Of a stretch of DNA of 64,000 nucleotides, positions 1,450 to 52,500 are shown in pieces. The DNA lies in the IMG/VR virus record IMGVR_UViG_3300011423_000008, positions 7,760 to 71,759 of that record; one strand, written 5' to 3'. Under the pieces are notes generated by a model. That model saw nothing but the letters and a program-made list of their open reading frames with translations. It made no database searches and had not been told where the DNA came from. Numbering within the stretch: the stretch's first letter is position 1; each line of letters opens with the position of its first letter. The position numbers and the translations under genes are program-made. Source of the stretch: a virus (lineage: Duplodnaviria > Caudoviricetes).

Positions 1450-1789
1450 AAAGAAGGATTTAATTTATACTTTCGAGGGGATTGAATTATGGAGTGTGCG
1501 GCAAGATTCATGGTGGATGACTGTTTATCAAATTATAAAAGATGGAGTTGTTTTAGAGGAAAGTTATAGATCAAATATTTTTGCGCCGGGATTGGAATTA
1601 TTCGAAAAATATACGGGTTTTGAGCGTGGGGGCCGGTTGAGTGATTTGGGGCCTTGGATGTATAAAAAGAATAATAGATATTATATGCCTGTTTCTATTG
1701 ATAAAACTAGTGTTTTTGGACCGCAAACATTTTTAGAAGTTAAAGTAAAAGAAGGATCGGGTGGTTATTTTACGATTGATAAAAGTTAA
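1442..1789 (+). CDS. hypothetical early protein
   Basis: Tiling ORF. Confidence 0.6.
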   Translation: MDKKKDLIYTFEGIELWSVRQDSWWMTVYQIIKDGVVLEESYRSNIFAPGLELFEKYTGFERGGRLSDLGPWMYKKNNRYYMPVSIDKTSVFGPQTFLEVKVKEGSGGYFTIDKS

Positions 1790-1801
1790 TAAATAAAAAA
1801 T

Positions 1802-2131
1802 ATGCAATATAATAAACAATGGTTTTTGGAGTTTTTTAAAAATATCCCGGATGATAAATGGGTTAGGGGCGTTTTAGAAACTCGGGCCGGATGTAAATGT
1901 ATGTTAGGGCATTTAGGATTAAAAGATTATGATTTTAATTCGATGGAACCCGAAGTAAGAGAGAGATTTAATGCTTTAATAAACCTTATTCACTGTAATG
2001 CTTATGATTGGGCACCAATTTATAGTATTAATGATAATATTGAAAATTGGGACTACGAAACTCAAGGAATACCCCCTTCCGAAGTGATTAAGCAAAATGT
2101 AATTAGTCACATTGAAAAATTGTCGGATTAA
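1802..2131 (+). CDS. hypothetical early protein
   Basis: Tiling ORF. Confidence 0.6.
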   Translation: MQYNKQWFLEFFKNIPDDKWVRGVLETRAGCKCMLGHLGLKDYDFNSMEPEVRERFNALINLIHCNAYDWAPIYSINDNIENWDYETQGIPPSEVIKQNVISHIEKLSD

Positions 2132-2480
2132 TTATGATTACTTATATATGGATAATATCATTACAGAATTAACAGAAAAAGAAGCGTGGCTTCGTATTGC
2201 GGAAGATTATCGTCGTTCTTACGATGTATATGAAAATAAATTTACAATTAGCGGAATTTGTTTGTTTTTAGATATGTTGAGTACTTCTGATTTGCTTTCT
2301 TATGAAACAAGACGGGTTATGATAAATAGACTTTATGATTATATGAGAAATAATAATTATGATGTTGATGATTATATTTGGCCGGTATCGCGAGATGGAA
2401 ATCATGAATTTCGTTTGCATCGGGCGGAATTAGCGGAACGGTTCGCCAAGGAGCTTGACAAAGCCAAGGATATAGCGTAG
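2112..2480 (+). CDS. hypothetical early protein
   Basis: Tiling ORF (ATG 2148 may be the true start); C-terminus reads through the promoter. Confidence 0.6.
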   Translation: MKNCRINYDYLYMDNIITELTEKEAWLRIAEDYRRSYDVYENKFTISGICLFLDMLSTSDLLSYETRRVMINRLYDYMRNNNYDVDDYIWPVSRDGNHEFRLHRAELAERFAKELDKAKDIA

Positions 2481-2483
2481 GAT
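2455..2483 (+). promoter_or_regulatory. sigma70-type early promoter
   Basis: TTGACA-17-TAGGAT. Confidence 0.75.
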
Positions 2484-2493
2484 TTAGACAGTT

Positions 2494-2582
2494 GATTGAG
2501 ATAGGGTTTTTAAGGGGTTGCTCGTTATAAATGTTCCGTGGCAACCGGACCTTATAACGCCTTTAGAAACCCGCTCTCAGTT
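2494..2582 (+). ncRNA. candidate structured RNA (long hairpin with pseudoknot)
   Basis: Nested stems GATTGAGA/TCTCAGTT, GGGTTTTTAAGG/CCTTTAGAAACCC, CGTTATAA/TTATAACG, TCCG/CGGA; loop GCAAC complements GTTGC. Confidence 0.5.
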
Positions 2583-2647
2583 AATAAATCGAGGCCCATA
2601 ATCCGGTTTGAGGCCCTGAACACCGGGATAAAAAATGAAAGTGGATT

Positions 2648-2884
2648 ATGAGCGTAGAACAAACAAGAGTATCGTGGATAAATGAATCGGAAGGAAATAG
2701 AAAATATAAAGTTCTTATTGAAAGAAATGGTGAGCCAGCATCGGCGGGAATTGTTTTCGCCAGAGATAAAAGGGCGGCTCTGACAAAAATTTCAATGAGA
2801 TTGTTTGACGAAGGATTTACCAAACTAACAATAAAAGAAGTAGAGTGGACACAATGTTGTCAGGTTAGTAATTGGGTTAGTTAA
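2648..2884 (+). CDS. hypothetical early protein
   Basis: ATG ORF. Confidence 0.6.
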   Translation: MSVEQTRVSWINESEGNRKYKVLIERNGEPASAGIVFARDKRAALTKISMRLFDEGFTKLTIKEVEWTQCCQVSNWVS

Positions 2885-2895
2885 TAAAAATTTAA

Positions 2896-3096
2896 CGCGC
2901 TGTAGCTCAGATGGTAGAGCACGATGTTATATCAGTAATGGTATAACATTCCCGAACAAAAGACAAAAAAGGATGAAACAAAAGTTAATAGAGGGTTCGA
3001 AACCGATATTAATTAGTAGTGGATTTGGATATTGTTTGGCGGACGGGGCACAAAACATGTGTGAGGTCGGTTGTTCGATTCAATCCGGCGCGACCA
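2896..3096 (+). ncRNA. oversized tRNA-like RNA (201 nt) with inserted domain
   Basis: Acceptor CGCGCTG/CGGCGCG + ACCA; D arm GCTC-AGATGGTA-GAGC; T arm GGTTG-TTCGATT-CAATC; about 147 nt between D and T arms. Confidence 0.8.
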
Positions 3097-3287
3097 TTTT
3101 AAATAATAATCTTATGTCTCGTTCAAAATTACCAGTTGAATTAAGGTGTTTAGATCGTCCCACTAGACGAAAAGTTAAACCCATTCCAGAAATAAGAAGA
3201 ACATCTTGGGAACGGTATAACGCACGAATGGCTAGAAGCAAAAATGCGTGGCAAAAAAGAAAATATTATAATTCGTTTCGATAATAT

Positions 3288-3521
3288 ATGTTTCATTTTT
3301 CTAAAGAACAAATCCACGAAGCCGGGGCGGATAAATTTGGTTCCGATTGGTTGTTTGCGAACGAAGCCGCCGTTAATATGGCTTCCAAACTTGGAATCTC
3401 TTACACAAGTCAAGAAAACAAACATTTAATTCCCGGTATTGTATTTGCGGTTTTGTTATACAAAGAAAACCAATTACAGAAAAAGAAAGATTATATTGAA
3501 AATTACGATCCTCCTGTATGA
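3288..3521 (+). CDS. hypothetical early protein
   Basis: Tiling ORF. Confidence 0.55.
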   Translation: MFHFSKEQIHEAGADKFGSDWLFANEAAVNMASKLGISYTSQENKHLIPGIVFAVLLYKENQLQKKKDYIENYDPPV

Positions 3522-3709
3522 TTGCTTTATTTTTTTATTTGAGCGGAGTAATAGGAGCGGCAACTATTTGTTTTCTTTTGTATTGTTTGGGAGGGCGGGG
3601 CTTGACTTTGTTAGAGCTTGGTTGTATGGTTGTTTGCGTGCTGCTTTGGCCTTTGGTTTTAATTGCTTGGGCGGCGAGAATGTTGATTATAATTATATTA
3701 ATGAAATGA
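3518..3709 (+). CDS. small membrane protein
   Basis: Two hydrophobic segments. Confidence 0.6.
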   Translation: MIALFFYLSGVIGAATICFLLYCLGGRGLTLLELGCMVVCVLLWPLVLIAWAARMLIIIILMK

Positions 3710-3891: not shown

Positions 3892-4312
3892 ACCATTTCA
3901 ACTAAGATGGAACGAACCATTAGGAAAGAAAGAATGTCCTTATGCCCGGAGATTTGTTTTATTAGTTTTTGATTTTGGTTTGAGACTTCATATTTGGAAA
4001 AGATCAGACGATAAAAGATATTTCCATAATCATCCTTGGGGATTTATTACTATAGTTTTATGGGGCAGATATACTGATGTAAGCAAAAACCCCGAGACGG
4101 GTAAAACAACAATAGATAAACTATCATTTTTATCCATTCGTTATCGTCCTGCGAGTCATCTTCACTATGTTGATGTTCCTGAGAGCGGGGCGGTAACGCT
4201 GGTTTTGAGCGGACGGCCCTTGACAAATTGGGGCTTTTGGGTTAATAACAAGATCATGCGCCCGTTACGATTTTTTAGTCGGTACGGGCATCCGGCTTGT
4301 AACGAACAATAA
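3881..4312 (+). CDS. cupin-fold protein (putative)
   Basis: Motifs LHIW...HNHPW...HLHYV typical of phage cupin-like proteins. Confidence 0.6.
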   Translation: MKTKPFQLRWNEPLGKKECPYARRFVLLVFDFGLRLHIWKRSDDKRYFHNHPWGFITIVLWGRYTDVSKNPETGKTTIDKLSFLSIRYRPASHLHYVDVPESGAVTLVLSGRPLTNWGFWVNNKIMRPLRFFSRYGHPACNEQ

Positions 4313-4320
4313 TAAATAAT

Positions 4321-4698
4321 ATGGGTTATCTTACTACAGTTATCTTGCATAATGACGCTCTAAGAACTTTCGAGGACAATCCTACGGAGTTCGCACAAGC
4401 TATTTTTAAAGGAATTGATCAGGCACAATACGGACACAGGGAAGTTTCTTGTTCTTGCGGGAATTATGCAAACTATATTCATGTTCATCCTTCTCGTCAT
4501 GCGGACGATGAGACTCTTTATTTGCATTGGGGAAATTCAGTAACTAATTTGGGCGCATATGATTTAGATTTTGTGGATTTGTGCCGTGATCGGCCAGCAA
4601 TTGCCGAACAATTAATTGAACGCGCCGAAATTCTATTAAAACAATCTAAAAAAGTTTATAACGAATTAAACAAAAGAAAAGTAAATGCAAAAAAATAG
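4321..4698 (+). CDS. hypothetical early protein
   Basis: Tiling ORF. Confidence 0.65.
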   Translation: MGYLTTVILHNDALRTFEDNPTEFAQAIFKGIDQAQYGHREVSCSCGNYANYIHVHPSRHADDETLYLHWGNSVTNLGAYDLDFVDLCRDRPAIAEQLIERAEILLKQSKKVYNELNKRKVNAKK

Positions 4699-4878
4699 AT
4701 TAATGTTGGTTTTTGCCGCTATTTGTCTCACTATTGAAGAAACGAATTGGGCTGATAGATCAGAAGATATTGATTTAATTGATACTACTTTATCAATACG
4801 GAAGATGCTCAAAAATAACCGAAGCAGAAATTAATGAAGTATCTAAAATGACTTTGGCTCAGATATTTGCAAAACTAA

Positions 4879-16889: not shown

Positions 16890-17258
16890 ATGAAATCATT
16901 AGAAGAACATATTAAATTATTGGATGAAACGGCGGCGTTTTATAATACTGGAAATCGTTGTATTGGCGAGCTAGGCGCGTGCATGTATTTCGTTGAAGGC
17001 AAGCCGGGGTGCGCCATTGGCCGTTTAATCGCGGATAAAGACCTTTGCCGCGAGCTTGACAAGCTGGATTTACCCGCTGTTGCTACGGTTTACGATCAAT
17101 TCCCGCCCGAGCTTCAAGAATATAAGAAAGAATTTTTAAGTGATTTACAAGCTTTGCATGATGGTGGTTATTATTGGGACGAACAAGGAATTAATGGATT
17201 TGGAAAAAGACAAGTAGAAGTGATTAAATCTAATCTATCCAAATACTTGAATGTGTAA
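16890..17258 (+). CDS. hypothetical early protein
   Basis: GCAIGRLI...LQALHD motifs. Confidence 0.65.
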   Translation: MKSLEEHIKLLDETAAFYNTGNRCIGELGACMYFVEGKPGCAIGRLIADKDLCRELDKLDLPAVATVYDQFPPELQEYKKEFLSDLQALHDGGYYWDEQGINGFGKRQVEVIKSNLSKYLNV

Positions 17259-18307: not shown

Positions 18308-18501
18308 ATTATTTTGTCTATTAGAGCGATTTTATTTGATTTTTAATGAATTTTGATTATACTGCGAGTGGCGTGAAATAAATAGAATTTTCCGTTGAGT
18401 GACGGAGAAAGAAGAAAATGAAAGCAAATTAAAAAATATAAGGCTCTACTTATTAAGCTCAAGAAGAAATTGTTTTTGTTTTCTTTTTAAATTAAACAAC
18501 G

Positions 18502-18529
18502 GGGGCGGGGCGTAAATCCCGCTCCTTTT
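18502..18529 (+). terminator. intrinsic terminator
   Basis: GGGGCGGG/CCCGCTCC hairpin + TTTT, just before a promoter. Confidence 0.6.
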
Positions 18530-18536
18530 GTTGGGC

Positions 18537-18564
18537 TTGACAAACTCCGGGGCTCTGGTATGAT
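18537..18564 (+). promoter_or_regulatory. sigma70-type early promoter
   Basis: TTGACA-16-TATGAT. Confidence 0.75.
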
Positions 18565-18572
18565 GCTGGCGA

Positions 18573-18842
18573 ATGAGTGAAACCAAAATACAATTAATTC
18601 ATATGCAAACCATTCCCAAACAAATAAACGATTGCAAATCAGGAGATTTAATTGATTTAGAGGGAGATATTATTGCTGATTTTAATCGTAATGATTCTGA
18701 TTTTCGTAATGAATATTCTGAAATCATTAATATTAAACAATTAGATAAAGATAATGTTTTAGTTGAATTTAAATATAATACGGTTTATAGGGCGGAAGTT
18801 TTTCCGAGCGCCCATTTGGTTAGGGCTGTTGTGGGGGGTTGA
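18573..18842 (+). CDS. hypothetical early protein
   Basis: ATG 8 nt after the -10 box; TGA stop within the next TTGACA. Confidence 0.65.
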   Translation: MSETKIQLIHMQTIPKQINDCKSGDLIDLEGDIIADFNRNDSDFRNEYSEIINIKQLDKDNVLVEFKYNTVYRAEVFPSAHLVRAVVGG

Positions 18843-18867
18843 CAAAGCCGGGGCGGTGGTATAGGAT
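18839..18867 (+). promoter_or_regulatory. sigma70-type early promoter
   Basis: TTGACA-17-TAGGAT. Confidence 0.75.
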
Positions 18868-18874
18868 GTTGACA

Positions 18875-18963
18875 GTTGGAACGAGTAACAGAGATGCCGG
18901 GGGCGCACCCTTGAAGGGGTTCCCTGTTAAAGAATGCCAGCATGGGCGCTGCGAACTTCCAAC
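18875..18963 (+). ncRNA. candidate three-way-junction ncRNA
   Basis: Closing GTTGGAA/TTCCAAC; TAACAG/CTGTTA, CCCTT/AAGGG and CAGC/GCTG stems. Confidence 0.5.
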
Positions 18964-18973
18964 ATTAATTTTT

Positions 18974-19154
18974 GGGGGCGTAGCTTAAATGGTCAGAGCA
19001 ACGGAGTGACTTCCGTATCTGAAATTTAGATTAGAATAATTTAGGGTTAGTCGCCTAGAGAAAAAACTAATTTAAATTCAGACTAAAGCGAATGGGTTTA
19101 TTTGACTGATAAACGAGATAGCTTTAGGTATAGGTTCAAAGCCTATCGTTCCCA
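18974..19154 (+). ncRNA. oversized tRNA-like RNA (181 nt) with inserted domain
   Basis: Acceptor GGGGGCG/CGTTCCC + A; D arm; T arm ATAGG-TTCAAAG-CCTAT; long inserted helices. Confidence 0.8.
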
Positions 19155-20842: not shown

Positions 20843-20850
20843 CATCACCT

Positions 20851-21159
20851 ATGACAAAAACAGACTTGTTCGAATGGGCCGAAATGACCGGCGAAACTAT
20901 TGATACGGCGGTGCCTCAGAATTGGGCCGATGCGGTTAACAAGCTCGGTATCGAATCGCGGGAATTCGCGTGGCATTATCCTAAGGACGGCGGACACGGC
21001 GGAAAGCCAATTTCGAACGGCGAATTGCTTATCAAGGCAATTTACAATGGTAATTTGGTGCCAATGCGTTTTATTGAGTCGGCAATTGAATTAGCCGCTG
21101 AAGGAAAGCCAAAAGAAGAAATAATGGCTTTGATTAAACTTTCTTGCGATGGTCTGTAA
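20851..21159 (+). CDS. hypothetical early protein
   Basis: ATG 8 nt after the -10 box. Confidence 0.65.
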   Translation: MTKTDLFEWAEMTGETIDTAVPQNWADAVNKLGIESREFAWHYPKDGGHGGKPISNGELLIKAIYNGNLVPMRFIESAIELAAEGKPKEEIMALIKLSCDGL

Positions 21160-39119: not shown

Positions 39120-39195
39120 TGGGGTAACGTACGAGATTCGCACTCGCTCCGAATCCTTCACAGGGATTGATGCTAACTATTACAACAACGTTACC
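39120..39195 (-). tRNA. trnH: tRNA-His(GTG)
   Basis: G-1/C73, encoded CCA, loop CT-GTG-AA. Confidence 0.9.
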
Positions 39196-39521
39196 ATTAA
39201 ATTATTTTTTAAAAAATATCGGAAGCACTACGGTTTCAAGAATAAACCCGATTAAAAGTGACACAACCCAATACAACGGAATTTGAATTTCAAAAAATTT
39301 CTTCATATTAATTAAAAATTTGTTCCCATTCCCCGGTTTTCTTGTCTTGCTCCCAAGTATAACTATTACTTGGCGGAATGATGATGCTTTTAATTAAACG
39401 CGACCAATCCTTTTGCGAGCCCTTGAATGTATCAGGCTTATCTTCCATGATTTTCCGAATGTCTTTTTTCGTTACTTTCATCTTTAATAATAGTAAAGGG
39501 GTTATGTTTATTGATCAAGTC

Positions 39522-39644
39522 TTATTTTAAATATTTTGTCCATTCGGGTGCATTAGGATTACGAGTATGATTAATTTTATACGTTAAACAGCCGCTTGCC
39601 CAAACTAAAAGGACAAATGCTGCGATAAGTAATATATGTTTCAT
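39522..39644 (-). CDS. small lipoprotein-like peptide
   Basis: MKHILLIAAFVLLVWASGC. Confidence 0.5.
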   Translation of the reverse strand: MKHILLIAAFVLLVWASGCLTYKINHTRNPNAPEWTKYLK

Positions 39645-39658
39645 TTTAAATTCAATAT

Positions 39659-39730
39659 TAGTCCGAGTGGGATTTGCACCCACAACCCCACCCTTATAAA
39701 GAGCACGCTCTAACTTTGAGCTACCGGACT
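39659..39730 (-). tRNA. trnI: tRNA-Ile(TAT)
   Basis: Cloverleaf; loop TT-TAT-AA; wobble-rich anticodon stem. Confidence 0.75.
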
Positions 39731-39739
39731 GTTCATTTG

Positions 39740-39828
39740 CGGATTGCACTAGACTTGCACTAAACGCCTTTTTAGGGGCGCGATCTGTTTAGCAAACAGT
39801 CTCGGCTCGCTTGTCCGATTTACAATCC
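39740..39828 (-). tRNA. trnS: tRNA-Ser(GCT), 8/4 fold
   Basis: Loop TT-GCT-AA, long V arm, G73. Confidence 0.85.
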
Positions 39829-39834
39829 ATTCCA

Positions 39835-40059
39835 TTAATTAAGTCCCAAATGTCTGGAGTCATCTTCTAATCTTGCCATAATATACCAACTAGGGGTTGT
39901 CGGCTCGCTATTATATCTCTTATTATAAGTTTCGCAAAATTTAATTGCCGCTTTTTTAGTTTTAAAGGTTTTGATTTCATCTATTTTTTGGCCCCATCCG
40001 GCCTCAGATTCAATCATTAAAACTCGAAATTTATTAGTCGCTGCTGGATTTCTGCCCAT
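39835..40059 (-). CDS. hypothetical protein
   Basis: ATG ORF within the array. Confidence 0.6.
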   Translation of the reverse strand: MGRNPAATNKFRVLMIESEAGWGQKIDEIKTFKTKKAAIKFCETYNKRYNSEPTTPSWYIMARLEDDSRHLGLN

Positions 40060-40068
40060 ATAATTTAA

Positions 40069-40075
40069 GTGTAAT
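40069..40075 (+). promoter_or_regulatory. putative late promoter motif
   Basis: GTGTAAT ahead of a 23-codon ORF. Confidence 0.45.
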
Positions 40076-40121
40076 ATATTTATATCAATTATGCAAGAAA
40101 AATGGTATGAAAAAGAATGGT

Positions 40122-40421
40122 TTATTGAATGGCTTCGTCTTGCTCGGAATCCAGACTATTAAGATAGTCGGCAATAATTTCCCCATGACACCTATTATAA
40201 GGCTTACAAAAACATCCAAGTTTTTTATTTTTTAATTTAATTAATTCTGCCACGAATCTTTTATCTTTTAATAAAAAAGGAAACCATTCGTTTTTATATC
40301 TTTCAATTACTTCGTCGCGGGTACCGTCGCGTCCAATAATATAAGGATTGCCAAAAATAGACCCGCGCCCAATATAACATGAATTTTTATCGTCGCGCCA
40401 ATTAACTACAGTAGTTATCAT
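40122..40421 (-). CDS. DUF4326-domain protein
   Basis: YIGRGSIFGNPY...LGCFCKP..CHGEII. Confidence 0.85.
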   Translation of the reverse strand: MITTVVNWRDDKNSCYIGRGSIFGNPYIIGRDGTRDEVIERYKNEWFPFLLKDKRFVAELIKLKNKKLGCFCKPYNRCHGEIIADYLNSLDSEQDEAIQ

Positions 40422-40846
40422 ACTAATGAACGAGGATGATATTCTTCTCGAAGTTTTTCGTATTCCTCCTTGCTTAAAACTTTTTCGATTTCGTTTGGAT
40501 GAGATATTTGAAACCCTCTTATAAACCGATGTTCTTTCGTAAAACCATAATATATGCCCGGACGTTTTGCGTGGGCGTTGAAAAACATGCAATGTCCTAT
40601 TAAACCATTTTTTAATATTACAGACTTATCCAAATAATCTTTGAATAATTCCATCATGCTTTCCGATCTTTTTATTTTATTTTTACGATGCCGTTCGAAA
40701 GAAAATAAGGGGTTATCTCGGCAAAGGTGACGGGTTTTATTTTTGTTAAACATTGCCCATTTTCCGTTTTCCTTTTGCGCCCAAAACAACCCTGATTTAT
40801 TGCAATATTTACAATAAGTTTCATTATATAAATCAAGTTCCGACAT
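40418..40846 (-). CDS. hypothetical protein
   Basis: ATGA overlap; CKYC...HLC. Confidence 0.6.
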   Translation of the reverse strand: MSELDLYNETYCKYCNKSGLFWAQKENGKWAMFNKNKTRHLCRDNPLFSFERHRKNKIKRSESMMELFKDYLDKSVILKNGLIGHCMFFNAHAKRPGIYYGFTKEHRFIRGFQISHPNEIEKVLSKEEYEKLREEYHPRSLV

Positions 40847-40850
40847 ATAA

Positions 40851-41099
40851 TTAATCAGTAAATTCTACCCCCAAAGGATGTTTTATTAAATCTTCTGCCT
40901 TGTATGGTTCTCTCCAATTATGTCTAATCCATTTTGCGGCACAATTTTTAGAACAAAAATAATGATGTTCTAAATTATCTGTATGAGATTTATTACATGA
41001 AGCGCAATGAGTAGATTTACTAACATTGATAGTAATAGTTTCTTGATTGAATTCTATTAATTGTTTATTGCATTCTTTACATCCAATAATTTGCATCAT
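40851..41099 (-). CDS. Cys-rich (Zn-binding) hypothetical protein
   Basis: CKEC, CASC, FCSKNC. Confidence 0.6.
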   Translation of the reverse strand: MMQIIGCKECNKQLIEFNQETITINVSKSTHCASCNKSHTDNLEHHYFCSKNCAAKWIRHNWREPYKAEDLIKHPLGVEFTD

Positions 41100-41103
41100 A
41101 AAT

Positions 41104-41198
41104 TGGCGGAGCGCGGAAATCCCGCCTTTCAGTCTCCCCGTAAAGAAAGACCCATCTACTTTCCAAGTAGCGATAGAACCTTGTCTATTTCACGCTCC
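41104..41198 (-). tRNA. trnS: tRNA-Ser(GGA), 8/4 fold
   Basis: GGAGCGTG/CGCGCTCC + GCCA; loop TT-GGA-AA; long V arm. Confidence 0.8.
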
Positions 41199-41203
41199 AT
41201 TTT

Positions 41204-41291
41204 CGGTTAATTGTGGTCCTGCCCCACATACCTTTTTAAAGGGTACCGTCCGTTTTCGAAACGGCAACAAACCTTGTTTGTTTAATTAACC
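41204..41291 (-). tRNA. trnS: tRNA-Ser(CGA)
   Basis: GGTTAAT/ATTAACC + G; loop TT-CGA-AA; long V arm. Confidence 0.8.
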
Positions 41292-41330
41292 ATTATTTAA
41301 GGGGCGTGATTTCACAATCAGTTACGCCCT

Positions 41331-41337
41331 GTGTAAT
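41331..41337 (+). promoter_or_regulatory. putative late promoter motif
   Basis: GTGTAAT 7 nt before ATG 41345; preceded by a GGGCGTGA/TTACGCCC hairpin. Confidence 0.55.
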
Positions 41338-41344
41338 TAATTAT

Positions 41345-41875
41345 ATGACGGAAGACGTAATTAATCAAATAAAAATTTTGCACACTCAGGGACTTGGATA
41401 TACTAAAATTTCAAAACAACTTAATGTCCCTCGTTCTAATGTTAAATATTATATTAACCATGAAAAAGAAAAAACAAACAGTGCAAAACGTCAAGCTAAA
41501 TACCGCAAAACAGACCCAATAAAACATAAACTAATGTTAGTAAAATTTCGCAAAGGAAAAAACGAATTTAATCGTTTGAGTCGCAAACGAAAAACCTTAC
41601 CACCTAAATTTACATTAGAGGAATTTAAAGAAAAAATTTTCAAAAATCCATATTGTTATTTAACGGGCCGCGAAATTAATTTAGAAAATCGAGATTCTTA
41701 TTGTTTCGATCATATTATTCCTAAATCAAAGGGCGGCGATAATTCTTTAGAAAATTTAGGTCTTACTTGCAATGATGCTAATGCCGCAAAAAGCGACATG
41801 TTGTTAGTTGATTTTTTTGCTTTATGCAAAGAGATTTTGGAACATAATGGTTATATTGTGAATGCGGTTCAATAA
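41345..41875 (+). CDS. HNH endonuclease with N-terminal HTH
   Basis: CYLTG...FDHIIPKSKGGDNSLENLGLTC..AN.AK. Confidence 0.85.
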   Translation: MTEDVINQIKILHTQGLGYTKISKQLNVPRSNVKYYINHEKEKTNSAKRQAKYRKTDPIKHKLMLVKFRKGKNEFNRLSRKRKTLPPKFTLEEFKEKIFKNPYCYLTGREINLENRDSYCFDHIIPKSKGGDNSLENLGLTCNDANAAKSDMLLVDFFALCKEILEHNGYIVNAVQ

Positions 41876-41956
41876 GGACTTGCACCTTAGTCCGATTGAT
41901 TACGGCTCCCATCAATTTTCAAAATTGCGCCGATACGCTTGCTCGGTTCTTGAACC
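41865..41956 (-). tRNA. trnS: tRNA-Ser(TGA)
   Basis: Loop TT-TGA-AA, long V arm, G73. Confidence 0.85.
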
Positions 41957-41961
41957 ATTAT

Positions 41962-42035
41962 TGCGCCTATCAGGAATTGAACCTGAAGCCTTTTCTTTCG
42001 CAAAGAATTATGCAAATCCATTACACTTTAAGCGC
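41962..42035 (-). tRNA. trnR: tRNA-Arg(GCG)
   Basis: Cloverleaf; loop TT-GCG-AA; canonical TTC T loop. Confidence 0.85.
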
Positions 42036-42211
42036 ATTAAAATGTTATTCTATCACAAACGAATCTTGTGTCATTCCAAATACTAATTCACAATTTTCTC
42101 CAGCATAAAGAGTTTTTCCTTTTAATTTTTCTATAAATTCAGAAGCTTTTGTTTGGTCCAAAGGTTCGCCCGTCGCTTCCAGTTCAACCCAATATATGAT
42201 TTTTTTATGTT

Positions 42212-42424
42212 TCATCCTATTTTTTTACTTCCTTCAACGCAATTATCTCCATCTGATTCGGGCAATAGCCACATTTTTTTACAACTCCAGCAAACTACTC
42301 CATCGGGGTCTATGCCGCAAGTATCATCTAAGTCGCCCGCGTACCAATAATTCTTTTTATTGCATTTGGGGCAATTATCTGCTAGATACATTTCCATATT
42401 AGCCGTAGGATGGTTCTGCCCCAT
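42212..42424 (-). CDS. Zn-ribbon hypothetical protein
   Basis: CPKC...CWSC. Confidence 0.55.
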   Translation of the reverse strand: MGQNHPTANMEMYLADNCPKCNKKNYWYAGDLDDTCGIDPDGVVCWSCKKMWLLPESDGDNCVEGSKKIG

Positions 42425-42481
42425 CGTCTCATTCTTACCAAGAATATATTCTACTATTGAAATACAACGGCATTATCAAAA

Positions 42482-42547
42482 AGCTATATCTGATACTTGC
42501 AATCAGCACGCTAATTTACGAAATTAGACTAGGTGCTTACATATAGC
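42482..42547 (-). tRNA. trnT: tRNA-Thr(CGT), D-arm truncated
   Basis: GCTATAT/ATATAGC; CTAAT-TTCGTAA-ATTAG; CTGAT-TGCAAGT-ATCAG; only 13 nt in the D region. Confidence 0.7.
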
Positions 42548-42729
42548 ATGTTGATAGGAGCGACAAAATTAATTTTTAAATCTAAACTAGGAATTTCCAT
42601 AATCCAAATATCGGCGCGTTTAATTAATTTATATTCAGAATCATTTATTTGTTTAATTAATCTATCAATAATATCAGCAGTAAGTCGCGCTTCTCTAAAA
42701 GTTTTACCGGTAATATGTAATTCCTTCAT
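42529..42729 (-). CDS. hypothetical protein
   Basis: ATG ORF. Confidence 0.5.
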   Translation of the reverse strand: MKELHITGKTFREARLTADIIDRLIKQINDSEYKLIKRADIWIMEIPSLDLKINFVAPINMLYVST

Positions 42730-42735
42730 ATAATT

Positions 42736-42818
42736 AGCCGTCTATCGGACTCGCACCGATGTTGGGATTTCTCCGTCAGTTTACAAAACTGGTCCTGTCG
42801 CTTCTGAGGCAAGACGGC
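42736..42818 (-). tRNA. trnT: tRNA-Thr(TGT) with long variable arm
   Basis: Loop TT-TGT-AA; G1-C72, C2-G71; V arm GGA-GAAA-TCC. Confidence 0.75.
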
Positions 42819-42826
42819 ATTAAATT

Positions 42827-42899
42827 TGACTCCGTAGGGACTTGCGCCCTCCTGTTTCGTTTAAGAGACGAATCCATCGGCTATCTATGGGTCGGAGCC
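42827..42899 (-). tRNA. trnK: tRNA-Lys(CTT)
   Basis: Cloverleaf; loop CT-CTT-AA. Confidence 0.9.
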
Positions 42900-42965
42900 A
42901 GTGTTTTATGGATGTAAATTTTCTAAATTTTTAATTTCTGAAGTAGTTTTCGCGACTTCCTTCTT

Positions 42966-43196
42966 TTATTTGTTAATTTCCGCCGCGACTTCATAAAGGC
43001 CAACCGCGCCCGCGCCGACAAGACAACCGGTAACAGCTACCGCGCCACTAAATACTCCTAAATACAAAGGCCATATAATTGCACCTAATCCAATAGCAAT
43101 TATTGGCAAATAATGATTTTGAATTTTAGGAAAACCTTTAACAATACCTACAATGATATTAATTAAAGCCGATACTAATAATGCATTTGGGTCCAT
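42966..43196 (-). CDS. phage holin-like protein
   Basis: Three hydrophobic segments; YLPIIAIGLG...GAGAVGLYE. Confidence 0.7.
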   Translation of the reverse strand: MDPNALLVSALINIIVGIVKGFPKIQNHYLPIIAIGLGAIIWPLYLGVFSGAVAVTGCLVGAGAVGLYEVAAEINK

Positions 43197-43213
43197 ATTT
43201 TTATTTTTAAATT

Positions 43214-43288
43214 TGTTCTCGGTGGGATTCGAACCTACATTATCCAGTTATGCGCTATCTCTTTAGGAAAGAGTGCCAATACGAGAAC
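43214..43288 (-). tRNA. trnR: tRNA-Arg(CCT), D-armless with D-loop-like V arm
   Basis: GTTCTCG/CGAGAAC; 7-nt connector; loop TT-CCT-AA; V region with AACTGGATA loop; TTCGAAT. Confidence 0.7.
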
Positions 43289-43411
43289 GATCATTTTTCT
43301 ATTAAAATTCCATTATCAAAATAAAGTTCAGGCACGCCTTTTTCATTAGGCCCTAAAGGACGATTCAGAGCAACACAACCAACAAGTCCAATAAGGCAAG
43401 CCGCCCACAAA

Positions 43412-43918
43412 CTAAATCTTCCAATAAATACAAGACGCAATTTCATTTCTAGTTAAATAAACTATCCGCCCGTTTTGCGGTTCTATAAATCCCATTCTAA
43501 CATCGCCCCCCTCTTTATACAAGAAGAAATTAATAGCGTGCCCTCGATTTGTAGATTCTTGAATATAAAAGAATTCCCCGATAGCTAATTGGTAATCATT
43601 TAATGAGTTTAAATCGCTCGCGACTTCTTGAGCCCCTAATGAAAAGTTATCACAATCAAAAGATTCTAGTTTATATTTTTTATTATAAAACTTTGACGAT
43701 AAATAGTTTACGTAAACAGTTTTGATCCAATGTTTGGTTGGTAAATAGTATGTTTTGTCGGAGATAACCGAACCATTCGAAGGGTGAACCCCCACGGTAA
43801 CATAAATATCTTCTATTTGAATCGTGCCATCCGTTTCGGGCGCGACGTAAGATGTAGAATCAATAGTTTTACAACCAATTACCAAACATAAAAAGAAAGC
43901 AATAATTATTGAGCGCAT
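43412..43918 (-). CDS. lipoprotein with papain/transglutaminase-like catalytic motifs
   Basis: LVIGC lipobox; FDCDNFS and GHAIN. Confidence 0.65.
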   Translation of the reverse strand: MRSIIIAFFLCLVIGCKTIDSTSYVAPETDGTIQIEDIYVTVGVHPSNGSVISDKTYYLPTKHWIKTVYVNYLSSKFYNKKYKLESFDCDNFSLGAQEVASDLNSLNDYQLAIGEFFYIQESTNRGHAINFFLYKEGGDVRMGFIEPQNGRIVYLTRNEIASCIYWKI

Positions 43919-43926
43919 TTGTTATA

Positions 43927-43933
43927 ATTACAC
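43927..43933 (-). promoter_or_regulatory. putative late promoter motif
   Basis: GTGTAAT 8 nt before ATG. Confidence 0.6.
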
Positions 43934-44037
43934 TTAGTTTTCTATAATCATGATTCGATCCTCGCTGGCCCCCGATCTTTTAGGCTCGGGCGCGAGCCAA
44001 AGAAATATAATACCAAACAATAGAATAATAATCAAAA

Positions 44038-44114
44038 TGGTAGCCACGGTAGGATTCCCACCTACATACAATCGTTTCGAAGACGATGACCTTAATAAAT
44101 TAGGTGACGCGGCC
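44038..44114 (-). tRNA. trnR: tRNA-Arg(TCG)
   Basis: Cloverleaf, encoded CCA; loop CT-TCG-AA. Confidence 0.85.
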
Positions 44115-44129
44115 ATAAATTAATAATAC

Positions 44130-50878: not shown

Positions 50879-51826
50879 TTAAGTGGGTAATAAAGGAAAT
50901 AAACCAGTAGTACTAATAATAAGATCGTCTATTGCCGTAACGCTAGTTAAAGCCGGTCCCCCGTGAGAATCGCATCGACCCAAACGAATAACTCTAATTT
51001 GGCTTGGAAGTCCGCCAATAGTTATTGATAATTCTAGTCCAGATTGCAACATAGTCCCGGTATCATATACGCGGGCATAAAATTTATCTCCCGATGCCGC
51101 TAAACATGTAACCCAATACGCTCTCCCTGTTACTATAGGAATACTTCCTGAAACGCCAACATTTGAATGAGCGGAAAGAACTTGTCCATTGGTTCTTAAT
51201 TGCAAAACTCCGAATTGTCCATTTTGCATATCCATTTCAATTTGATCAATAGAAGCAAAATTACCGCCCCCTTCATCATTACTACCAAAAGTCATAAAGC
51301 AACCCAAAGAAACTCTATCATAGGTTGGAGTAAAAGGCAGTCGAATTGTATTTAATTGACCGTTTTGGAATCTTAACGCGTTTACTCCGGTATCAGTAAA
51401 CCCCGTCCCATTAATTGAAATACCGCCGAACAGTCTTCCTTCACCTTCTGTTCCCAAAACAATTGTAGAACCACTTGCCCCAGAAGTAATTACCCAAGGA
51501 TCACTTGTAATATTTCCAAACGCACTATTTTGTAAAAACCCGCTTGTGACAGGTCCAGACGAAGCAAAATCCATATTTAAATAATAATTTACTGGTAAAT
51601 AAGAAATCGAAACACCGCTAGTAGTAAAAAAATGTCCAGTTAAAACAGTATCTAAAATAGAAAAATATTTCTTTCTAACTTCATCGGAATATTTTCTTCT
51701 TTGGTTTGCTGTCCAATTACCGTAATAACCCGACCCCTCTAATTGAAAAGTTGTCAAATCTAAGCCGCTTCTAGGTAGCTGATGCAATCGATTGCCAAAA
51801 TTTGAATAATTACCAGTTAGATACAT
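50879..51826 (-). CDS. beta-sandwich (ConA/LamG-like) putative virion protein
   Basis: Beta-rich C-terminal domain ending TAIDDLIIST; late motif upstream. Confidence 0.5.
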   Translation of the reverse strand: MYLTGNYSNFGNRLHQLPRSGLDLTTFQLEGSGYYGNWTANQRRKYSDEVRKKYFSILDTVLTGHFFTTSGVSISYLPVNYYLNMDFASSGPVTSGFLQNSAFGNITSDPWVITSGASGSTIVLGTEGEGRLFGGISINGTGFTDTGVNALRFQNGQLNTIRLPFTPTYDRVSLGCFMTFGSNDEGGGNFASIDQIEMDMQNGQFGVLQLRTNGQVLSAHSNVGVSGSIPIVTGRAYWVTCLAASGDKFYARVYDTGTMLQSGLELSITIGGLPSQIRVIRLGRCDSHGGPALTSVTAIDDLIISTTGLFPLLPT

Positions 51827-51837
51827 ATTTGATATTA

Positions 51838-51844
51838 ATTACAC
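51838..51844 (-). promoter_or_regulatory. putative late promoter motif
   Basis: GTGTAAT 11 nt before ATG. Confidence 0.6.
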
Positions 51845-52192
51845 TGAATTATTAGATTTCTTTTCTAAGTCTAACTGTGCGTGCAATTTTCTATGGCAAT
51901 TTGCACATAAAACATCACATTTAGCTATTTCTGCTTCGATTTTCTCATCGCTGAAAAATTTAGCCATTTTACTTACGTCTTTTATTTTTTGAGCCGGGTC
52001 GCGATGATGAAAATCCAAACAACAAAAATCGTTCTCGCCACATTTTATACAGAACAAAATATTTTTATATTTGATTATAAATGCTTCTTTCCGAGTTTGT
52101 TTTCGTATTTTAGCTTTGGTTTTATATGCGACTTTGTGTTTTTTATAATATTCGCGAAACCATTTGTTGTAATTTTCTTTGTTACGTGGCAT
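51839..52192 (-). CDS. HNH endonuclease
   Basis: CIKCGE...LDFHHRDP..K...KCDVLCANCHRKLH. Confidence 0.9.
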   Translation of the reverse strand: MPRNKENYNKWFREYYKKHKVAYKTKAKIRKQTRKEAFIIKYKNILFCIKCGENDFCCLDFHHRDPAQKIKDVSKMAKFFSDEKIEAEIAKCDVLCANCHRKLHAQLDLEKKSNNSV

Positions 52193-52267
52193 TGGTGAGG
52201 GATGCGAGTAACGCTCTCGCTAATTCAGATTGGAAGTCTGACATGTATCTGTCAACATCTATCCCCC
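52193..52267 (-). tRNA. trnG: tRNA-Gly(TCC)
   Basis: TCAGA-CTTCCAA-TCTGA; CCA. Confidence 0.85.
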
Positions 52268-52273
52268 AAAATT

Positions 52274-52346
52274 TGGACCAGCAGGGTAACGCTCCCTGTT
52301 CTATACATTGCAAGTGTATTGTGTTAACTTTTAGCACTACAAGCCC
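52274..52346 (-). tRNA. trnA: tRNA-Ala(TGC)
   Basis: G3-U70, A73; loop CT-TGC-AA. Confidence 0.85.
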
Positions 52347-52348
52347 TT

Positions 52349-52416
52349 CAGGTTGTGTGAGACTCGCACTCACCAAGACAAGTTTTGGAGACTCGTCACC
52401 GCCTTGCGGACAACCT
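52349..52416 (-). tRNA. trnW: tRNA-Trp(CCA), mini D arm and 7-bp anticodon stem
   Basis: AGGTTGT/ACAACCT + G; CCGC-AAG-GCGG; GACGAGT-CTCCAAA-ACTTGTC. Confidence 0.8.
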
Positions 52417-52425
52417 ATTTTAAAA

Positions 52426-52500
52426 TGGAGCGGGTTGCGGTATTTGCAACCGCTTCTGGAGAATGGCAATCTCCCGTTTCACTACATAAACTAAACCCGC
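52426..52500 (-). tRNA. trnG: tRNA-Gly(GCC)
   Basis: GCGGGTT/AACCCGC + TCCA; loop TT-GCC-AT. Confidence 0.9.

Follow-up and report, generated by a model that had tools for sequence, protein, structure and literature searches.

The window analysed here is a stretch of 64,000 nt (bases 7760-71759) of a 71.8-kb IMG/VR virus record estimated to be 55% complete (IMGVR_UViG_3300011423_000008). The same large terminase is present on a 213-kb contig, with hundreds of relatives on contigs of 120-220 kb, which identifies the source as a tailed jumbo phage from a clade without cultured members. Small + strand ORFs make up an early region in the left third of the window, and an array of more than 20 tRNA genes lies on the - strand at 39-52.5 kb (39120-52500). 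Within the early region, a 181-nt element (18974-19154, + strand), with the sequence previously given for these coordinates, occupies most of a 334-nt gap flanked by two small + strand ORFs. The ORFs overlapping the element are short and implausible, and no credible ORF spans it. Co-oriented ORFs begin 23 nt 3' of the element (19177 onward), having no convincing terminator in between. The ten neighbouring ORFs have no Pfam family above the curated cut-off.

Table 1. Parts of the 181-nt element, its upstream signals and the other interrupted or enlarged tRNA-like genes of the same genome; positions are those of the window unless the record is named.
Feature	Position	Strand	Description
Sigma-70-like early promoter	18839-18867	+	TTGACAAAG, 14 nt, TAGGAT; 107 nt upstream of the element
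GC-rich 5' leader	18868-18973	+	55-58% GC vs about 30% GC in the neighbourhood
Acceptor stem, 5' strand (GGGGGCG)	18974-18980	+	Pairs with 19147-19153; 7 bp, two G-U
D arm	18983-18999	+	4-bp stem; 9-nt loop with A14, A15, G18, G19, A21
Hairpin at anticodon-arm position	19001-19016	+	5 bp; 6-nt loop GUGACU
Cargo helix A	19018-19082	+	22 bp as 6+10+6; one bulge; A-rich 5x7 internal loop
Cargo helix B	19083-19127	+	7 bp, 6x6 internal loop, 6-7 bp; loop UUGACUG
T arm	19130-19146	+	5 bp with G53-C61; loop UUCAAAG
Acceptor stem, 3' strand, and discriminator A (19154)	19147-19154	+	No CCA encoded; trailer CUUUUU
2896 element	2896-3096	+	Anticodon arm replaced by a 12-bp GUAA-capped hairpin and a branched domain
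Third oversized element	48844-49001	-	Removal of 62 nt at U33/U34 gives a neat class II tRNA-Leu(UAA)
Intron-bearing tRNA-Leu(UAA)	Record (G000) 3244-3537, 4.2-4.5 kb upstream of the window start		Intron 3277-3481, 205 nt

The unconstrained minimum free energy (MFE) fold of the + strand recovers every part of the element listed in Table 1. A sequence-only reading had described an acceptor stem (GGGGGCG/CGTTCCC followed by A), a D arm with GG and a T arm, and all three lie where it had placed them and are recovered by the fold. Its 5-bp hairpin with a 6-nt loop is likewise seen in both the sequence and the MFE fold, and the giant variable region of two long helices that it proposed is reproduced at 19018-19127. 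The nucleotides that build the tRNA elbow are complete (U8, A14, A15-U48, G18, G19, A21, G53-C61, T54-A58), which includes a GU immediately 5' of the T arm whose U is position 48, opposite A15. The loop of the first hairpin contains a U33-like base and GAC and lacks the purine at position 37, while the apical loop of helix B looks like the anticodon loop of a Val(GAC) tRNA that has U at position 37. The apical loop of helix A has 8 nt (GUUAGUCG), and no k-turn or loop-E motif was seen by eye in the internal loop of helix B. All 57 of the 57 predicted pairs are intact, and the junctions of the insert are clean, with zero to two nucleotides.

The + strand fold has an MFE of -59.4 kcal/mol, compared with -37.2 +/- 3.8 in shuffled sequences (z -5.9), and none of 200 shuffles was as good. 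The 110-nt insert folded alone gives z -5.8, and for the reverse strand the fold is no better than -36 kcal/mol (z -2.0). The cargo helices contain three G-U pairs, which become C-A mismatches if the other strand is folded, and G-U pairs are also found in the acceptor stem and the D stem; this distribution argues for an RNA read from the + strand and not for a DNA palindrome. The frame was also searched with a strict detector, which demands a [U/G][U/G]C-purine-A loop in the T arm and, immediately 3' of that arm, a 7-nt strand; this strand has to pair fully with a 5' strand that is itself followed by a 4-bp D stem. On the 71.8-kb record the detector returned this element, two other oversized elements (2896 and 48844) and six ordinary tRNAs, and ten shuffled genomes gave 0-2 hits (mean 0.4). 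The suggestion of a tRNA chassis carrying a large structured insert is therefore upheld by the fold and the detector, with three oversized frames in this genome, and there is a high probability that the element is a real structured RNA gene. The GUGACU loop and the loop of helix B have UGACU in common, as do 1.9% of shuffles. The loop of helix A is complementary to both UGACU loops, with 5-6 contiguous pairs, and the two properties occur together in 3.4% of shuffles. This sharing and complementarity of loops gives weak support for the non-decoding RNA proposed below.

The putative early promoter upstream of the element is an exact copy of a recurrent motif, TTGACAAAG-N14-TA(G/T)RRT, which has 12 copies, all on the + strand, between 1094 and 22061 of the window (1.85 expected; no shuffle reached 12). 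Several copies are located about 10 nt ahead of an ATG (e.g., 20290/20328, 20814/20851 and 21810/21848), which suggests nearly leaderless early mRNAs. The promoter of the element is atypical, in that a GC-rich leader of about 100 nt separates it from the tRNA-like gene. Within the leader, the stretch 18875-18963 is closed by GTTGGAA/TTCCAAC, and its + strand fold is not significant (z -0.2). The leader ends in UUUU and thus has a U at position -1, which suits bacterial RNase P. This promoter motif is also present, in a copy of its own, at the intron-bearing tRNA-Leu gene upstream of the window. As separate observations on the composition of this region, the heptamer GGGGGCG has 15 sites in the window compared with 4.4 expected (e.g., 18501, 18899, 18974 and 19219). 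Four of its copies fall inside 720 nt around the element, the copy at 18501 opens a terminator-like hairpin (18501-18526), and further GC-rich patches are present at about 17000-17100, 18500-18600 and 20850-21000.

Compared with canonical tRNA (RF00005), the element has the acceptor, D and T arms and the tertiary nucleotides of the elbow; in place of a 7-nt anticodon loop with purine 37 and a length of about 70-95 nt, it has a 6-nt loop and 181 nt. It is not called by ARAGORN with default settings, and no Rfam family matches it at the gathering score. With Rfam at E values up to 10, the only match is to tRNA and covers its 3' part (19088-19154), with 17 bits against a threshold of 29, and takes the tip of helix B as the anticodon arm. 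ARAGORN in tmRNA mode finds no tmRNA (RF00023), and the element has G-C at position 3-70, a D stem and no tag ORF. A bacterial Y RNA (YrlA) was rejected as well, having no Rfam hit for the element and no TROVE domain in the 71.8-kb record (55% complete). The architecture of the tRNA-like stable RNAs of phages, namely a phage-encoded tRNA frame (acceptor, T and D) around a non-decoding middle, is found in the element; these RNAs (T5 RNA1/RNA2, T4 rnaC) are an architectural class and not a sequence family.

The three oversized elements of this genome have only generic tRNA features in common, and their insert sites differ. When scored with a model built on the 181-nt element, the 2896 element reaches 13.6 bits, owing solely to the frame. 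The two inserts are unrelated in sequence, as had been observed from the letters alone, while the proposal that both follow the same logic did not hold: the 2896 element has other structures in place of the anticodon arm, whereas the 181-nt element retains this arm and has its cargo in the variable region. Similarly, of the proposed family of tRNA-chassis RNAs the shared architecture stands, and a homologous family with one logic does not, the inserts being unrelated and differently placed. The 2896 element also contains a second, internal T-loop-like hairpin (GGTTCGAAACC). The 48844 element is better read as a tRNA-Leu(UAA) with an insert; its 62 nt are too short for a group I core and end in C, not G, and may be the remains of an intron or a small intron of an unknown type. 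This insert and the group I intron of the upstream tRNA-Leu gene interrupt the same site, U33/U34.

All three oversized elements have the canonical GG/UUC elbow. Most array tRNAs of this phage and of its two closest relatives (L082 and L083) have UGC(A/G)A.. in the T loop, not UUC, and AG in the D loop, not GG, while Asn(GUU) and three of the Arg-type genes (gcg, cct?, tct?) keep the canonical GG/UUC. The pattern in the arrays looks like a clade-wide change of the elbow contact, and the canonical elbows of the oversized genes, set against it, suggest that these genes have a separate origin.

No homologue of the element was found by blastn against 50,697 phage GenBank records, by megablast of its 20-kb context against the same type of records, or by searching IMG/VR with three exact 20-28-mers from the element. 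A covariance model of the element gave no match in five related IMG/VR genomes or in 80 kb of early regions and tRNA arrays of the two closest relatives, whose terminases have 76% and 68% identity. About 40 kb of early region in each of these two relatives was also without an oversized frame (ARAGORN with introns, frame detector). The comparison of cargo across related phages that had been proposed thus found nothing to compare, with no oversized frame in any sampled relative. The early region is hypervariable, with 5 of 47 ORFs matched in the closest relative and in a different order, and searches of IMG/VR with the neighbouring proteins found no closer relatives. The only other copy of the element is in a second assembly that is 100% identical over 14.5 kb. 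A single gapped-pattern match in a JGI metagenome (L135) was rejected as chance, having no BLAST similarity, no tRNA and no model hit. The 21-mer of the D arm, searched against 185,579 genomes, matches only ordinary tRNAs of four identities (Thr, His, Lys and Met), which means that the frame is uninformative about identity. A mobile-element origin of the insert was rejected, with no other copy in 1.1 Mb of related DNA. The element has the appearance of an addition specific to this lineage, complete with a promoter of its own.

Here it is proposed, with a probability of about 0.5, that the element is the gene for a non-decoding stable RNA built on a tRNA frame, processed by the tRNA machinery and having its extra arms as the working part. 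The host RNA polymerase would transcribe it from its own sigma-70-like promoter as part of an early transcript. The RNA would then adopt a full tRNA L-shape, in which the acceptor stem is stacked on the T stem and contact between the D and T loops can hold the elbow in place; this predicted capacity to fold is the one step of the mechanism that can be read from the sequence itself. By analogy with established tRNA biology, RNase P would cut after U(-1) and release the leader of about 100 nt, the 3' end would be trimmed back to the discriminator and CCA would be added, to give a nuclease-resistant RNA of about 184 nt. This RNA would not read codons, since a normal anticodon cannot be displayed by a loop of 6 nt that lacks purine 37, and the element is most likely non-decoding. 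The two arms would leave the core at the site of the class II variable arm and, together with the two UGACU loops, could form the working part. Speculatively, its targets could include a host or phage tRNA-handling factor, such as valyl-tRNA synthetase (ValRS; A73 and GAC), a tRNA-cutting defence nuclease or tRNA-Asp. The timing given by the early promoter points to a role at the start of infection, for example in takeover or counter-defence.

The main identity elements of tRNA-Val are discriminator A73 and the GAC anticodon, and the element has A73 and also GAC in both hairpin loops. GAC is a codon for Asp too, complementary to the anticodon of tRNA-Asp. None of these hints of Val or tRNA-Asp specificity is strong, and they are post hoc. 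A more specific version, in which the RNA is an early decoy or sponge that shows GAC twice in loops on a tRNA frame, is given very little weight. In it, the RNA would soak up ValRS or an anticodon nuclease, or would clamp the GUC anticodon of tRNA-Asp by loop-loop pairing like the specifier loop of a T-box, with the third loop (UAGUC) as an internal lid pairing with either site. Counting against the non-decoding RNA, no partner protein is encoded nearby, and homologues are absent from the sets searched, as is the element from the closest relatives. A CCA-adding enzyme and a Ro protein were not found in the 71.8-kb record (55% complete).

The nearest known counterparts are RNA1 and RNA2 of phage T5 (AY543070, 30501-30644 and 32959-33083), which are annotated as 'tRNA-like stable RNA with unknown functions' and are recovered by the same frame detector, with an acceptor stem of 6/7 in RNA1 and of 7 bp in RNA2. 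Like the element, they are phage-encoded and have an acceptor stem, a D arm with GG, a canonical T arm and a middle that is not tRNA. They are shorter (121-144 nt compared with 181 nt), have no sequence similarity to it and lie within a tRNA cluster, whereas the element stands alone behind an early promoter; in both T5 RNAs the anticodon arm is replaced, while the element keeps a malformed anticodon arm and carries its cargo in the variable region. As a further observation on the T5 RNAs, the insert of RNA2 has an internal T-loop-like hairpin (CTCG-TTCGATT-CGAG), comparable to that of the 2896 element. The rnaC and rnaD genes of phage T4 (species 1 and 2 RNAs; AF158101, 70908-71171) are annotated as small stable RNAs, as is predicted for the element, and in rnaC the 3' end is formed by a canonical T arm and an acceptor-like stem. 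They differ in being late RNAs within or next to a tRNA cluster, without sequence similarity to the element, and rnaC has no clear D arm in its predicted fold. A 2022 study still describes these species 1 and 2 RNAs as being of unknown function (PMC9697503).

Outside the phage RNAs, class II tRNAs (Leu, Ser, Tyr; RF00005) also have an extra arm between positions 44 and 48, a canonical elbow and an acceptor end; in them, the arm is a single hairpin of about 3-7 bp, compared with two arms of 110 nt in total and a 6-nt anticodon loop in the element. The tRNA-like domain of tmRNA and the valine-accepting structure of TYMV also join a tRNA frame to a large non-tRNA domain. Unlike tmRNA, the element is without G3-U70 and a tag ORF and has a full D stem. 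The tRNA-like structure of TYMV obtains its Val identity through an A73-like base and an anticodon-like A and C; unlike the element, it is the 3' end of an RNA virus and has a pseudoknotted acceptor. The element is probably a tRNA look-alike of the kind long known in T4 and T5. Non-decoding tRNA-shaped phage RNAs have been known since the era of these phages without an assigned function, and distinctive here are the whole cloverleaf, the two-armed 110-nt cargo at the position of the variable arm and the dedicated early promoter. A single orphan sequence is one data point and not a mechanism.

A disabled tRNA is an unlikely explanation, although several observations fit it. A canonical-type ancestor, perhaps Val(GAC), would have lost a base of the anticodon loop while its variable region grew, leaving a transcribed relic without function. 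GUGACU can be read as a Val(GAC) loop minus position 37, the element is absent from all sampled relatives and lies in a hypervariable region, and the genome has many aberrant tRNA-like genes. An intact structure in one lineage is equally consistent with a young pseudogene. However, a relic is at odds with the preservation of every predicted pair and every elbow nucleotide, with a strongly structured insert (z -5.8) joined by clean junctions of zero to two nucleotides, and with the element having its own promoter; the insert is also not a repeated mobile element.

Decidedly less probable is a cis-acting signal, in which the tRNA-like fold would be a cut site for RNase P/Z that separates the leader from the mRNA of the small ORFs (19177 onward), or would protect the end of that mRNA. 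The order of promoter, leader, element and co-oriented ORFs 23 nt further on, with no convincing terminator between, is in keeping with this, as is the exceptional length of the untranslated unit, the other early promoters being about 10 nt before start codons. Yet a plain tRNA or hairpin would suffice for such a purpose, and two elaborate arms and a complete elbow exceed the needs of a cutting signal; the U-rich trailer could also weakly terminate transcription.

It is highly unlikely that the element is an intron-bearing tRNA, from which the insert, or positions 27-122, would be removed after transcription to leave a working tRNA. The same genome has a genuine group I intron in tRNA-Leu(UAA) and another Leu(UAA)-like gene that carries 62 extra nt at that position, and Lak megaphages have oversized tRNA genes with 'enigmatic introns' that belong to no Rfam intron class (Devoto et al. 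2019, PMC6784885). The upstream tRNA-Leu gene is the sole match to RF00028 in the genome (37 bits, E 1e-7 to 2e-9) and serves as a positive control for this search within the genome; its exons join at U33 / ... G / U34 to give a perfect 86-nt class II tRNA-Leu(UAA) with CCA. The element gave no match to RF00028 at E values up to 10, and its insert, at 110 nt, falls short of the size of a group I intron, that of the genome itself having 205 nt. Removal of the insert still leaves the 6-nt loop, and no bulge-helix-bulge was seen by eye at either boundary.

Splicing was also assessed by deleting every segment of 40-170 nt from the element and submitting the remainder to ARAGORN, which gave two readings only. 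One keeps the first hairpin with a two-base "anticodon" in its 6-nt loop. The other removes 96 nt (element positions 27-122), with the end of helix B serving as a Val(GAC) anticodon arm. Against this reading, the "intron" would fall at 26/27, between the D arm and the anticodon arm, a perfect 7-bp helix would be lost, and the remaining tRNA would have U37 and a variable region of 14 nt. A direct intron call by ARAGORN, Lys(UUU) with 94 nt, is a visibly strained and poor reading. Since none of the deletions restores a convincing normal tRNA, splicing to one is unlikely. The Lak inserts, in contrast, were placed in the anticodon loop using eukaryote settings, and their removal leaves a typable tRNA (PMC6784885).

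Next to no credence is given to a chance resemblance to a cloverleaf in AT-rich intergenic DNA, with which the lack of default ARAGORN and gathering-score Rfam calls would agree, but not the 0.4 frame hits of all lengths per shuffled genome, the fold z of -5.9 or the presence of all tertiary positions.

Some further features were observed in the relatives of this phage. The closest relative has a tRNA with a CUA anticodon (L082, 17673-17749, - strand), called 'Pyl' by ARAGORN, which could be an amber suppressor and would hint at recoding of TAG in the clade. The other close relative has a TnpB/Cas12f-like gene inside its tRNA array (L083, 15862-16965, - strand), and its early region (L143) contains genes of the AIPR abortive-infection type and of the PolyA_pol/CCA-adding-enzyme family (1669-3081, - strand, and 4050-4751, + strand). 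Among the relatives of the terminase, several of about 1040-1065 aa (P0004, P0012, P0034, P0039 and P0054) have intein/LAGLIDADG domains (PF14528, PF14890) and are intein-interrupted terminases of the clade.
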